From a virus (Duplodnaviria > Heunggongvirae > Uroviricota > Caudoviricetes): 51,929 bases of DNA. Position 1 is the stretch's first letter, and each line of letters starts with the position of its first letter. The notes beneath the pieces are model-generated. The model had not been told where the DNA came from. It worked only from the letters and a program-made list of their open reading frames with translations, and did not search any database. This document shows, in pieces, positions 5,470 to 23,223 of the stretch. The DNA lies in the IMG/VR virus record IMGVR_UViG_2541047794_000002, positions 1 to 51,929 of that record; one strand, written 5' to 3'. The position numbers and the translations under genes were made by a program.

Positions 5470-6162
5470 TTATCCATGTTTCCTGTACGTCTGGGGCATG
5501 CTCCCAATAACCTTACCGAAGATGAACACCCGGTTCATCTCGTCTTTCTCGATCGGGTCCCACGGTGAGTAGCTCTTGTTATCAGAGATAACCAGCAGCT
5601 TATCCTTCATCATTTGCAGGCGCTTTACATGGGCGGTGTCGTCGTACAGAAACGCATAGATGCCATCACCGTCGAAAGATTTAACCGTGATATCAACGAA
5701 CAGAAGATCACCAGGTTCAATCGTTCCTGACATGCTGTCACCGCGTACGTTAATGATGCGGATATTTTCTGCCTTCCTACCATCGAACATGTGACGAGCA
5801 TCGTCAAACGAGTACTCAACCGAGCGTAGAACTTCTACAAACTCACGGTTGATGACTCCCGGCCCGGCACTCACTTCTATATCAAGAACGTCAATCTTGA
5901 AGTATTTGGGATGGTTGGCAGTAGGCTTCCCTAATTGTTGACCGTCATTTCTCATCGGGCCTATGCCTGATGAGAGCCACTCTGTTCGAACACCCAATGC
6001 ATTAGCTATTTCAACAATTTTTGTTGAGCCGCGCGCGTTGCCGCTTGTCAGTCTCCAGATTGTGGGTTGAGCTACGCCAGACGCCTTTGCAAGAGCGCCT
6101 TGAGACATTCCAGATTGTTCCATCGCTAGGTTTAAGCGATCAGCAAGAGTTTCTTTTTTCAT
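5470..6162 (-). CDS. cI: CI-type prophage repressor (HTH plus S24 LexA-like peptidase domain)
   Basis: N-terminal HTH (SQGALAKASGVAQPTIWRL) and C-terminal S24 motifs (GDSM...KRL). ATG at 6160-6162 sits directly at the operator region, compatible with a leaderless PRM transcript as in lambda. Confidence 0.85.
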   Translation of the reverse strand: MKKETLADRLNLAMEQSGMSQGALAKASGVAQPTIWRLTSGNARGSTKIVEIANALGVRTEWLSSGIGPMRNDGQQLGKPTANHPKYFKIDVLDIEVSAGPGVINREFVEVLRSVEYSFDDARHMFDGRKAENIRIINVRGDSMSGTIEPGDLLFVDITVKSFDGDGIYAFLYDDTAHVKRLQMMKDKLLVISDNKSYSPWDPIEKDEMNRVFIFGKVIGSMPQTYRKHG

Positions 6163-15167: not shown

Positions 15168-16250
15168 TTAGAACTGATAAACCAGACCTACAGCGACGAT
15201 GTCGTCGGTATCAATACCAGCTGTTTTGGTAAACTTACTATCGTCAATTAAGTTGATTTTGTAATCAACAAAAGTGGACATGTTTTTATTAAAGTAGTAA
15301 GTAGCACCGACATCGACATACTTGACTAAGTCTCGGTCACCATGAACACCAAGGTCTTTACCTTTTGACTGAAGGTAAGCAACAGATGGGCGCAGACCGA
15401 AGTCAAACTGATATTGTGCTACTGCTTCAAAGTTTTGTGCTTTGTTTGCAATATGGTTATTACCAAAAACGGTCATATTCTGAGTTTCAGAATATGTGGT
15501 AGCCAGATAGATATTGTTCGCATCATATTTCAGGCCTGCAGCCCATACTTCCGCATTTTTGCCGGAGGCATTGAATTTGCTCTTACCATAGGCGACCTGA
15601 CCGTCAGTGCGATCTGATTTAGCATAGGTTGCACCCACGCCGAATCCTTCATACTCATAAGTAGTGGAGAAACCGAAACCATCACCATTGGCTTCAGTTA
15701 CGTCAGTGCGGTCATTTTTACCCTGATACTGAGCAGCAAAGTTCAGGCCATCGACCAGACCAAAGAAGTCGTTGTTACGATAAGTTGCAACACCAGTAGT
15801 GCGACCAGTCATGAACACATCTGTTTGGGTCCAGGTATCACCACCGAATTCTGGCAGAACGTCAGTCCACGCACCGATGTCGTATGCTACACCGTAGTTA
15901 CGGCCGTAATCGATTGAGCCGTAATCACCAAATTTCAGGCCTGCAAATGCAAGACGGGTTTTGTCTTTGGAAGAACCTTGAGATTCAGCACGGTTGCCTT
16001 TGAATTCATATTCCCACTGACCGAAACCAGTCAGTTGATCGTTGATTTGGGTTTCACCTTTGAAGCCAAGACGGGCATAAGTAGTATCACCATCATCTGC
16101 ATCATTAGAGGAGAAGTAGTGCTTGGCATTAACTTTCCCGTATAGATCCAGCTTGTTACTGTCTTTATTATAAATTTCAGCTGCCTGAGCAGACATCGCC
16201 ATCAGTACTGATGCAGCTACAGCAGAAATTGCCACTGTTAATTTTTTCAT
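15168..16250 (-). CDS. nmpC: Outer-membrane porin NmpC (OmpC/OmpF family), intact
   Basis: From [23 protein letters not shown] signal peptide; 16-strand porin sequence ending in the C-terminal ...VGLVYQF motif. Confidence 0.9.
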
Positions 16251-16599
16251 TGTACGCCCTTTTTTTGAACTATTATTAAAAAATGATGTCACTGCGCGAT
16301 AAATATTCATCTAATCAATGTGATTATTTCAAGATGTAAGTTTTAGTTTCTCATTTAATTTGTGAAGTAGATCTCTATTTTTATCTGAACCTTTTCTATC
16401 TAATCCTATTCATGGCTCTTGTTTGAACGAAAATAAATCTATTAGCTAATTTATATTAATGGCACTTATTTATAAGCGCTCTATAATTCTTTAGCTTAAT
16501 TTAAACAAACTAAAAATAACATCGGAAATTATTCATTGGTTATTTGTTGAAGTTTTCTTATGTATTTGTGGTGGTGTTTTGAACACTCGGTGGCATTCT

Positions 16600-16677
16600 C
16601 ACAAATATCATTTAGTAGTTTACGTACGTAAAAAATTGGTTATGCTGTTAAGAGTGGTTACTTCGTCACACAGCTTA
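16600..16677 (+). promoter_or_regulatory. Putative late promoter pR' and Q-utilisation region
   Basis: AT-rich region upstream of a short hairpin terminator and the lysis genes; position equivalent to lambda pR'/qut. Not verified. Confidence 0.4.
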
Positions 16678-16710
16678 AACCCGCCGTCGAGCGGGTTTTT
16701 CCATTTTTTG
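16678..16710 (+). terminator. tR'-like terminator upstream of the lysis cassette
   Basis: ACCCGC-cgtcga-GCGGGT hairpin followed by TTTTTCCATTTTTT. Confidence 0.65.
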
Positions 16711-16838
16711 AGTCTCGATATTAGCTGATAACCCAATACCTGAGTTATTCACTGACTCCGAATCTGTTACGTTTCTGCCTTTATTGCGATACGTAGTATC
16801 CCCTTAATTTACACCCGCTTTGTCTGCGAGGTGGGGTT

Positions 16839-17054
16839 ATGAAATCCATGGATAAGTTAACAACGGGTGTCGCCTATGGTACCTCAGCAGGTAGTGCCGG
16901 GTACTGGTTTTTACAGTTGCTCGATAAAGTCACGCCCTCACAGTGGGCGGCAATAGGTGTGCTGGGTAGTCTGGTATTTGGCTTGCTGACGTATCTGACA
17001 AACCTTTATTTCAAGATTAAAGAAGATAAGCGTAAGGCTGCGAGAGGTGAATAA
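16839..17054 (+). CDS. essD: Holin (phage 21 S-type)
   Basis: 71 aa [29 protein letters not shown]... matches DLP12 EssD. Confidence 0.9.
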
Positions 17055-17551
17055 TGTCGCCATCATTACGCAAGGCTATTGCTGCTGCTATTGGTGGTGG
17101 GGCTGTTGCCATAGCGTCTGTGCTCATCACTGGTCCGAGTGGTGACGATGGCCTGGAAGGTGTCAGCTACATACCATACAAAGATATCGTTGGCGTATGG
17201 ACTGTATGTCACGGACACACCGGAAAAGACATCATGCTCGGTAAAACGTATACCGAAGCAGAATGCAAAGCCCTCCTGAATAAAGACCTTGCCACTGTCG
17301 CCAGACAAATTAACCCGTACATCAAAGTCGATATACCGGAAACAACGCGCGGCGCTCTTTACTCGTTCGTTTACAACGTGGGCGCTGGCAATTTCAGAAC
17401 ATCGACGCTTCTTCGCAAAATAAACCAGGGCGATATCAAAGGCGCATGTGATCAGCTACGGCGCTGGACATACGCTGGCGGTAAGCAATGGAAAGGGCTG
17501 ATGACTCGCCGTGAGATTGAGCGTGAAGTCTGTTTGTGGGGGCAACAATGA
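17054..17551 (+). CDS. rrrD: Endolysin (T4-lysozyme-like, signal-anchor-release type)
   Basis: 165 aa with N-terminal SAR segment and lysozyme catalytic motif (phage 21 R / RrrD). Confidence 0.9.
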
Positions 17552-17991
17552 GCAGAGTAACCGCGATTATCTCCGCTCTGGTTATCTGCATCATCGTCTG
17601 CCTGTCATGGGCTGTTAATCATTACCGTGATAACGCCATCGCCTACAAAGAGCAGCGCGACAAAGCCGCATCTACTATCGCTGACATGCAGAAGCGTCAA
17701 CGTGATGTAGCAGAACTCGACGCCAGATACACAAAGGAGCTTGCTGATGCTAACGCGACTATCGAAAGTCTACGTGCTGATGTTTTTGCTGGTCGTAAGT
17801 GGCTGCGCGTCAAAGCAGTCTGTCCGGACATGCATAAAACCACCGCCGCCTCCGGCGTGGATGATGGTGCCAGCCCCAGACTTACTGACACCGCTCAACG
17901 GGATTATTTCGTTCTCAGAGAGCGCATCGAAACCGTAACTAACCAATTGAATGGTCTGCAAGAGTATGTGAGATCACTGTGTTCATATTAG
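17548..17991 (+). CDS. rzpD: Rz inner-membrane spanin
   Basis: From [30 protein letters not shown]...; Rz family. Confidence 0.85.
17741..17938 (+). CDS. rzoD: Rz1 outer-membrane lipoprotein spanin, embedded in the +1 frame of Rz
   Basis: Lipobox VVSGC and proline-rich PPPPPAW motif; embedded-gene architecture. Start codon uncertain. Confidence 0.6.
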
Positions 17992-18029
17992 AAAAGTCTT
18001 ATCATAAGATTTTTGTATATGGATGCATT

Positions 18030-18404
18030 ATGTCTCAATACGCTCAAGCCGCTTTAAATGCTTATCAATTGGTTGCTCATAACTCAATGTCTCCTCGTGA
18101 TGCATGGGAGGCTGCTGTCGCTGAGGTTACAGAAAGCGAATCGGCAAGAAAGAAGGGATGCCCAAGGGCAACGTTTCTCGCTCTGGCGGATAGCGGTTAT
18201 CTGAAGAATGTAAAACAACATCATGGGGAGAAAAAGATCGGTAAGTTGTACCAAAGGGCAATTGAAGTTGCGAATCTGATTCTTGATTTACCCGGAATTA
18301 GCAAAGCTGAGCTAGTTGATAAAACTTGCTATAAAGACAGGCAAGGATCTTATGACATTGCTCTAACTCTCGCTCAGCACGGATTACTCCAGCGTCCTCA
18401 ATAA
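18030..18404 (+). CDS. Hypothetical moron protein downstream of the lysis cassette
   Basis: 124-aa ORF from MSQYAQAALNAYQL..., AT-rich upstream region, own terminator downstream; not present in lambda at this position. Confidence 0.5.
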   Translation: MSQYAQAALNAYQLVAHNSMSPRDAWEAAVAEVTESESARKKGCPRATFLALADSGYLKNVKQHHGEKKIGKLYQRAIEVANLILDLPGISKAELVDKTCYKDRQGSYDIALTLAQHGLLQRPQ

Positions 18405-18421
18405 GATATTAAGTGATTTAT

Positions 18422-18448
18422 GGCCTCGCTTTTAGCGGGGCTTTTTCA
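18422..18448 (+). terminator. Rho-independent terminator
   Basis: GCCTCGC-tttta-GCGGGGC hairpin followed by TTTTTC. Confidence 0.6.
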
Positions 18449-18502
18449 TATCTGAATCTCACCATGCATATCATCACCTGACTGGAACGTCAGGAGAATT
18501 CG

Positions 18503-18754
18503 TTACCGGGATTCGATAAAGGTATTCAAGCCTGACACATTATGCGCTGTATCGTCGCCGTATTCCTGCATTAACCATGACCGTAGCCCGACGGGGAATT
18601 CCTTCTGCGCGAGTGTGCGGGAATAATCAAAAACGATGCACACCGGGTTTTTACCGCGTTTATTATTCGCGGGTTTGTCCCTCATGCTCGCCAGTCCTGT
18701 GCGGGGGTGGAAGAAACAGGACGTGTATTCAGGTCTGTCAGATATTGAATTCAT
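18503..18754 (-). CDS. Hypothetical small protein just upstream of cos
   Basis: 83-aa minus-strand ORF; no recognised domain; could be non-coding. Confidence 0.25.
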   Translation of the reverse strand: MNSISDRPEYTSCFFHPRTGLASMRDKPANNKRGKNPVCIVFDYSRTLAQKEFPVGLRSWLMQEYGDDTAHNVSGLNTFIESR

Positions 18755-18759
18755 TGCGA

Positions 18760-18990
18760 ATAAACCAGAACGCCTGCGGGTCCTTTCCGGCGATCCGACA
18801 GGTTACGGGGCGGCGACCTCGCGGGTTTTCGCTATTTATGAAAATTTTCCGGTTTAAGGCGTTTCCGTTCTTCTTCGCCGTAACTTAATGTTTTTATTTA
18901 AAACACTCCCTGAAAAGAAAGGAAACGACAGGTGCTGAAAACGGGCTTTTTGGCCTCTGTCGTTTCCTTTCTCTGTTTTTGTCCGTGGAA
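18760..18990. other. Prophage cos site (cosQ-cosN-cosB); cosN GGGCGGCGACCT at 18809..18820
   Basis: Near-identical to the lambda genome left end (GGGCGGCGACCTCGCGGGTTTTCGCTATTTATGAAAATTTTCCGG...), about 188 bp upstream of nu1. Confidence 0.85.
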
Positions 18991-18996
18991 TGAACA

Positions 18997-19516
18997 ATGG
19001 AAGTCAACAAAAAGCAGCTGGCTGACATTTTCGGCGCGAGTATCCGTACTATTCAGAACTGGCAGGAGCAGGGAATGCCCGTTCTGCGAGGCGGTGGGAA
19101 GGGTAATGAGGTGCTTTATGACTCTGCCGACGTCATAAAATGGTATGCCGAAAGGGATGCTGAAATTGAGAACGAAAAGCTGCGCCGGGAGGTTGAAGAA
19201 CTGCGACAGGCCAGCGAGACAGATCTCCAGCCAGGGACTATTGAGTACGAACGCCATCGACTTACGCGTGCGCAGGCCGACGCACAGGAGCTGAAAAATG
19301 CCAGAGACTCCGCTGAAGTGGTGGAAACCGCATTCTGTACTTTCGTGCTGTCGCGGATCGCAGGTGAAATTGCCAGTATTCTCGACGGGATCCCCCTGTC
19401 GGTGCAGCGGCGTTTTCCGGAACTGGAAAACCGACATGTTGATTTCCTGAAACGGGATATCATCAAAGCCATGAACAAAGCAGCCGCGCTGGATGAACTG
19501 ATACCGGGGTTGCTGA

Positions 19517-19542
<26 letters not shown>
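18997..19542 (+). CDS. nu1: Terminase small subunit Nu1
   Basis: 181 aa, near-identical to lambda Nu1. Confidence 0.95.

Positions 19543-23223
<3,681 letters not shown>

Follow-up and report, generated by a model that had tools for sequence, protein, structure and literature searches.

In phage lambda, the slot between Rz and cos is occupied by bor, an opposite-strand gene that has a promoter to itself and whose product is an outer-membrane lipoprotein (PMC3594210). A moron, as defined for gene 15 of phage HK97, is extra DNA between conserved genes, missing from close relatives, with a deviant GC content, its own promoter and terminator, and expression in the repressed prophage (PMC3594210). 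In the DNA analysed here (51,929 nucleotides, IMG/VR record IMGVR_UViG_2541047794_000002, a virus of the Caudoviricetes; hereafter the window), the slot is filled by an open reading frame (ORF) of the DUF6979 family. Two further kinds of system are to be considered. The controller (C) genes of restriction-modification (R-M) systems sit just upstream of R genes, and the C proteins have an Xre-type helix-turn-helix (HTH). The mom gene of phage Mu is dispensable, lies at the right-hand end of the late region, has its ribosome-binding site (RBS) in a hairpin and serves restriction evasion; like P1 Dar and T4 IPI*, it belongs to the late-expressed anti-restriction genes.

The DUF6979 gene shares the Rz-cos slot with bor and, like bor, is dispensable cargo; however, it is on the late strand, and its product has neither a lipobox nor a signal peptide. 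As in the morons of the HK97 gene 15 type, it is extra DNA compared with close relatives, has a deviant GC content and ends with a terminator at the 3' edge, but no promoter was detected, the left edge lies inside Rz, and the terminator is missing in some alleles. The likeness to Mu mom appears to be one of layout only, namely the late position and the RBS within a predicted hairpin; the Mom enzyme is about twice as large, with no sequence or fold relation. As with the C genes, many DUF6979 members are small and lie just upstream of, or overlap, restriction genes, but Xre-type HTHs were not found in the window protein or in the 40 members scanned, and the partners of the family are of many unrelated kinds. 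The controller role was rejected for the gene in the window, which has no restriction partner and is followed by a terminator and cos. That the ORF is a conserved accessory gene which takes the place of bor behind the lysis cassette and is followed by a terminator is firmly established. We propose that it may be understood as a passenger, an accessory gene firmly joined to the 3' end of the lambdoid lysis cassette.

The open reading frame and its family

The late region of the window has the lambdoid order, namely a minus-strand porin gene, pR'/tR'-like sites, holin, endolysin, Rz/Rz1, the DUF6979 gene, cosN, Nu1 and terminase A. The late genes were identified with the help of the records of phage 4A7 and E. 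coli SE15, whose annotated DNA is 99.7% identical here. The features are as follows.

16459-16487, plus strand, pR'-like promoter (ATGGCA-17-TATAAT, 10/12; consensus scan only)
16677-16698, plus strand, tR'-like terminator, a strong hairpin just upstream of the holin gene (consensus scan only)
16839-17054, plus strand, holin
17054-17551, plus strand, endolysin
17548-17991, plus strand, Rz
about 17741-17938, plus strand, Rz1, embedded in Rz
17892-17991, plus strand, last ~100 nt of Rz, which always travel with the DUF6979 ORF and recur in Salmonella prophages
17978-18027, plus strand, predicted RNA hairpin that includes both the stop codon of Rz (17989-17991) and a weak Shine-Dalgarno GGA (18020-18022)
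18030-18404, plus strand, DUF6979 gene (ATG 18030, TAA 18402-18404; 124 aa)
18422-18448, plus strand, intrinsic terminator, at 18422-18442 a 9-bp stem, 6 of its pairs G-C, and a loop of 3 nt, then the T run TTTTTCAT
18808-18819, plus strand, cosN, GGGCGGCGACCT, an exact match to the lambda cohesive end
18997-19542, plus strand, Nu1, downstream of cosN and followed by terminase A

The preliminary description had placed a 124-aa ORF with an AT-rich lead-in in the slot where lambda carries bor, between the lysis cassette and cos, and these points were borne out. The ORF is present on the plus strand and starts 38 nt past the Rz stop codon; the spacer (17992-18029) has a GC content of about 24% by direct count, that of 17900-18099 is 38%, and close relatives carry bor at this place. 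The lambda cosN follows about 400 nt downstream of the gene, and the match of the window to the phage records 4A7 and Lambda_4C10 ends near cosN. An in-frame extension of 17 codons upstream of ATG 18030 (17979-18029) is open in every allele, with GTG 17979 in E. coli and ATG in Salmonella, and the start codon is therefore uncertain. The changes within this extension are mostly conservative among the alleles, and translation might instead begin at a site that overlaps the stop codon of Rz. ATG 18030 is favoured by the N-termini of the family and by the gene callers.

Several other elements of this region were observed. An OmpC/NmpC-like porin gene (15168-16310, minus strand), for which the records of phage 4A7 and E. 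coli SE15 give 'porin OmpC', lies between the Q gene and the lysis cassette with AT-rich flanks of 25-30% GC (16200-16600); we take it to be a classic porin moron of the DLP12 type. The pre-cos segment 18515-18600 is 95-98% identical to more than 2,600 E. coli records, Stx phages included, is far commoner than the DUF6979 gene and is overlapped by small minus-strand hypothetical ORFs. A long inverted repeat just upstream of Nu1 (18911-18978), which drew spurious microRNA matches in Rfam, is probably the cosB repeat region; the Rfam scan of 17500-19100 gave nothing meaningful.

The preliminary description had recognised no similarity for the product, which proved to be wrong. The protein matched Pfam DUF6979 (PF22399) with 108.2 bits against a cut-off of 27 (E 3.9e-31), its residues 1-121 corresponding to model positions 1-127 of 127, and this was its only Pfam match above the cut-off. 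It also matched PHROG 5039, and identical genes are already named 'DUF6979 family protein' in RefSeq. It is firmly established that the gene is a plain member of a known, uncharacterised family that is already annotated in public records. No paper mentioning DUF6979, PF22399, phrog_5039 or the RefSeq accessions was found in the literature; the subject of a paper on the NC-SV prophage was an sRNA inside cI and not the DUF6979 gene.

The product has a mass of 13.7 kDa, a pI of 8.9 (family median about 9.1) and a GRAVY of -0.42. Its N-terminus is polar and its first cysteine is residue 44; neither a signal peptide or lipobox nor any membrane or periplasmic signal was found in it. These properties predict a small, basic, soluble, cytoplasmic protein. 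It was not assigned to the Bor/Iss lipoproteins, given the sole match to DUF6979, the position of the first cysteine and the GRAVY. Since the protein is cytoplasmic as judged from its sequence, a Bor-like surface or virulence role is excluded on this prediction.

Homology searches and structure prediction had been proposed in the preliminary description; the former identified a full-length DUF6979 member, as given above, and the latter yielded a confident all-alpha model. The AlphaFold model, built with a 40-sequence alignment, has a pLDDT of 95.1 and a pTM of 0.89 and shows seven helices together with a very small bridge of two strands. Across 40 diverse aligned members, W26 was invariant and K42, C44, P45, F49, L52 and G56 were nearly invariant; all of these residues, and a G-C-P motif, are present in the window protein. 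Foldseek comparison of the model with BFVD and PDB returned no fold relative at E up to 0.001. Two weak leads, an MGMT/alkyltransferase-like DNA-binding domain and a NusB-like fold, failed the profile test and were abandoned; for the former, significant sequence or profile similarity, a PCHR-type site and a shared fold had been required. None of the PADLOC-DB 2.0 models matched the protein at E up to 1. When the window protein and 40 family members were scanned, HTH_3 and HTH_31 gave no match, and HTH_27 gave a single weak one (E 0.22).

The gene was found in 248 of the 5,426 complete E. coli genomes, in each as a single, full-length, chromosomal copy, and the alleles fall into four identity bands from 86% to >99%. 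Among 50,697 GenBank phage records, nine carry it, and these represent seven distinct temperate lambdoid phages (4A7, Lambda_4C10, D2, 1W, 3W, mEp460_4F5 and SfI). The ORF is intact in all of them, and conservation in related prophages was one of the points on which the preliminary description had let its claim depend. The dN/dS was 0.28 against SfI, 0.26 against the HK97-like allele of E. coli and 0.18 against Salmonella. The ORF is a genuine gene, on which purifying selection acts. One might argue from the absence of a known function and of a detected promoter that it is a chance ORF or a decaying, functionless remnant. That explanation is refuted by these dN/dS values, by the full length of all 248 E. 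coli copies, and by a family of 327 representatives at the 50% identity level with conserved motifs and a confident predicted fold, and we give it virtually no credence.

With the family profile, 542 matches were obtained, and relatives occur in at least 297 species-representative genomes of bacteria and archaea, the carriers including methanogens, haloarchaea, Thermoplasmata, Acidobacteriota, Paenibacillus and Planctomycetota. In IMG/VR, only 28 DUF6979 loci were found. DUF6979 is mainly a cellular or mobile-island gene with a sporadic distribution.

A variable slot with a constant tie to Rz

The composition of the gene is foreign relative to the flanking genes: its GC content is 44.5% and its GC3 36.0%, compared with 46-54% and 49-61%, respectively, in the neighbours. 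Relatives with the same lysis genes and Nu1 fill the slot with bor, which then lies on the opposite strand, with a KilA-N gene or with other ORFs. The homology with these relatives breaks at 17756-17922, in the 3' part of Rz, and resumes at 18515-18543. The mosaic joints are inside Rz and not in the spacer, so that an exchange takes the end of Rz and Rz1 along.

A block corresponding to 17892-18452, made up of the final 100 nt of Rz with the spacer, ORF and terminator, recurs in Salmonella prophages, where it is preceded by a different, complete Rz; the homology stops right past the terminator, at 18452. Between the Salmonella cassette and the window, the 140 nt upstream of the ORF are 86-90% identical, whereas the ORF is 75% identical with a dS of about 1. 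In Salmonella prophages (L095 and L097, both 5666-5962; L096, 4710-5914), an apparent decayed second Rz/Rz1 lies between the complete Rz and the DUF6979 gene, with an ORF that begins with a transmembrane segment and C-terminal tails in the frames of Rz and Rz1. L096 has an IS transposase insertion at the site equivalent to window position ~17987.

The spacer behind Rz is exactly 38 nt in every E. coli allele, whatever the lysis cassette, and the place and strand of the gene behind Rz are constant in lambda-like, HK97-like, SfI and Salmonella prophages. These carriers differ in their holins, endolysins, Q proteins and terminases. Their packaging modules are of the lambda Nu1/A type, of a type having an HNH gene with a P27-type terminase, of the DUF1441-type terminase and of the Mu-F/portal_3 type. 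Altogether, the same Rz-DUF6979 arrangement is shared by lysis cassettes of four kinds and packaging modules of at least four. Several carrier prophages also encode DNA methyltransferases, and a stand-alone homologue was found in Kluyvera. In E. coli M3 (L133, 906-1875), the prophage is heavily degraded, with a truncated endolysin fused beside a recT fragment and the terminase lost; the Rz-DUF6979 pair is still intact.

Such a constant linkage may suggest that the gene helps in lysis or packaging, that is, in spanin function, lysis timing or the handling of cos. The invariable 38 nt behind Rz across these cassettes and modules, the pair retained in the degraded prophage and a possible translational coupling to Rz are in favour of this explanation. 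Nevertheless, archaea and many bacteria have members of the family without phage genes in the vicinity, the number of phages that carry the gene is small, closely related phages manage without it, and the protein has no membrane or periplasmic signal. A role in lysis or packaging thus appears improbable to us.

Signals for expression

The preliminary description had noted a clean terminator after the ORF, and the site at 18422-18448 agrees with it. The predicted folding energy is -18.1 kcal/mol with a z score of -3.4 (1 of 200 shuffles as good), and the site is the strongest terminator-like one in 16300-19600. It is kept in the Salmonella cassette and missing from the SfI and HK97-like alleles. 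On the plus strand of the same interval, terminators were found only at the tR'-like site, behind the ORF and, as a weak site, in cosB. Between the tR'-like site and the ORF this strand has none, and none separates the gene from S-R-Rz.

In a consensus scan, which weak or non-sigma-70 sites could escape, no sigma-70-like promoter at 9/12 or better was present on the plus strand in 16488-18030. The best candidate by eye, TTCATA-17-TAAGAT (8/12), has a -10 that varies by allele (TGAGAT, TAAAGT) and is not conserved. We take the layout at 16459-16698 to be that of lambda pR'/tR'. By analogy with lambda biology, the pR'-like promoter is the likely source of a transcript that would reach the DUF6979 gene. 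RNA polymerase antiterminated by Q would then transcribe it together with S-R-Rz late in lytic growth, and the terminator behind the ORF would stop, ahead of cos, only those polymerases that are not antiterminated. Late synthesis in a Q-dependent transcript is, on this analogy, likely.

Translation may be linked to that of Rz as well. The hairpin predicted at 17978-18027 (-18.1 kcal/mol, z -3.9; none of 200 shuffles as good) pairs an arm holding the Rz stop codon with an arm holding the Shine-Dalgarno GGA, and it contains an inverted repeat (17989-18002 / 18004-18017); two other alleles have weaker analogues. Although the ORFs of the alleles diverge by as much as 14%, the 70 nt formed by the spacer and the final Rz codons are 97% conserved. 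The allele alignment gave no covariation support for the hairpin because the alleles are too similar. The predicted structure may serve translational coupling to Rz or may be an operator-like palindrome, and the 97% conservation could equally hide a promoter or an operator. In the former case, ribosomes that finish Rz would open the hairpin in which the weak RBS is buried, so that the DUF6979 gene is possibly coupled to Rz.

The preliminary description regarded the ORF as an independent moron with its own terminator and remarked that genes in this slot are often lysogenic-conversion factors. Such a gene would have a promoter within the conserved 140 nt upstream that is active in the repressed prophage, would end at its own terminator, and would alter the lysogen by lysogenic conversion or superinfection exclusion. 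The GC3 of 36%, well apart from that of the neighbours, supports this explanation, as do the bor or KilA-N genes that fill the slot in relatives. A terminator at this place is sensible only for polymerases without antitermination; the Salmonella cassette has kept its upstream 140 nt better than the ORF; and the stand-alone homologue of Kluyvera must possess its own promoter. However, the promoter search gave only the 8/12 candidate with its variable -10, and the gene shares the strand of the late operon, with which it is aligned. The mosaic joints are in Rz rather than around the gene, the SfI and HK97-like alleles have no terminator, and a cytoplasmic protein excludes a Bor-like surface role. 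Accordingly, the word moron is justified as far as the absence from close relatives, the foreign GC3 and the terminator are concerned, but the word independent is not supported, in view of a promoter search without a hit at 9/12 or better, the open connection to S-R-Rz, the late strand and the fixed 38 nt after Rz. The expression signals argue against independence without settling the question, and we consider an independent moron unlikely.

Family neighbourhoods and possible functions

To survey the neighbourhoods of the family outside phages, ORFs were called crudely in 80 loci and the immediate neighbours were scanned; 76 species-level loci were analysed. In such genomes DUF6979 is typically a lone gene that is often lodged in a restriction or defence island. 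A restriction or defence gene was at +1 or -1 of the DUF6979 gene in at least 15 of the 76 loci. The neighbours of this kind were as follows.

Directly downstream, 4/58 loci: type I methylase gene
Directly downstream, 4/58 loci: HNH nuclease gene (gap of 0-3 nt in L055 and L080)
Overlapping the DUF6979 gene by 8 nt: GmrSD gene
Overlapping the DUF6979 gene by 4 nt: EVE-McrB gene
1 nt from the DUF6979 gene: SRA gene
9 nt from the DUF6979 gene: RAMA gene
Upstream neighbour in other loci: SNF2-Mrr, STAND NTPase, REase-ARP nuclease, HIRAN, GajB-like helicase or PIN toxin

In six loci inspected separately, genes for SIR2, ScoMcrA-HNH, Mrr, DndB, type III R-M, ArdA and RES-Xre were nearby, and one member lies in a mobile element with ArdA. 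The neighbours are heterogeneous, and many are of the housekeeping kind (Tex, ROK, FAD enzymes). The enrichment of restriction and defence genes near DUF6979 genes is our judgement and not a measured rate.

In three of the loci, the DUF6979 gene is wedged between separate defence genes in a tight, operon-like string, namely STAND NTPase - DUF6979 - HsdM-HsdS-HsdR (L022), SNF2-Mrr - DUF6979 - GmrSD (L038) and REase-ARP nuclease - DUF6979 - EVE-McrB (L082).

A single conserved partner was sought by all-against-all BLAST of 448 neighbour proteins, in which no cluster was represented in more than 6 loci. SIR2 was also rejected as a partner; it was adjacent in three of the first six loci, yet no SIR2 was found within 8 kb in 76 further loci, and there was none in the window.

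The family context points, as far as gene neighbourhoods can tell, to DNA-restriction conflict rather than to a Bor-like surface function. We speculated that nucleic acid or a nuclease is the target of the DUF6979 protein in restriction or phage-versus-phage conflict, and that W26, together with K42, C44 and P45 at the start of the helix 43-54, may form an active or binding surface. Possible directions would be protection of the lysogen (exclusion or defence), protection of progeny DNA (anti-restriction) and regulation of a partner. The reading that we favour, though its chance falls somewhat short of even, is that of a late passenger encoding a small protein directed at nucleic acid or a nuclease in such conflicts; the conflict part of it is a guess from family context.

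A more specific form of anti-restriction would be that the gene is an orphan copy of a restriction-linked family whose product, made late, protects progeny DNA or is packaged and injected, and so blunts type I or type IV restriction. The late-operon position beside cos is consistent with this possibility, and so are the family members that overlap GmrSD, EVE-McrB, SRA and HsdM genes and the one that shares a mobile element with ArdA; moreover, the carrier prophages with DNA methyltransferases would be targets of type IV enzymes. On the other hand, the protein is basic and hence no acidic DNA mimic like Ocr or ArdA, and most family members are in chromosomal defence islands, where an inhibitor is unexpected. 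This explanation is therefore rather unlikely in our view.

A bolder version of the favoured passenger reading is that DUF6979 is an unrecognised, fold-novel module of restriction and defence islands in bacteria and archaea alike, of which the Rz-linked orphan would shield the lysogen from phages or the progeny DNA from restriction, with W26, K42, C44 and P45 as the working surface; we regard it as possible but doubtful. If the protein acts in restriction or phage conflict, it would be a very small and structurally unprecedented player, distributed from E. coli prophages to methanogens, and the lambdoid Rz-cos slot would hold another class of cargo beyond bor. If it is only a late passenger, it is an ordinary annotated DUF. 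The defence-island association and the absence of a fold relative are all that might repay further work. The seven phages listed above are inducible and carry the gene, and testing in an E. coli/lambda-like setting is cheap.

Fusion proteins were also considered as a clue to function. The extra parts of P0127 and P0042 had no Pfam or PDB match and did not recur near other family genes, and the fusion in P0065, a low-complexity repeat protein, is probably spurious. The only convincing multi-domain relative was P0127 (476 aa, from a metagenome), in which DUF6979 is fused to a C-terminal part of 350 aa. This part contains a PDF...EVY stretch that is faintly reminiscent of PD-(D/E)xK nucleases.
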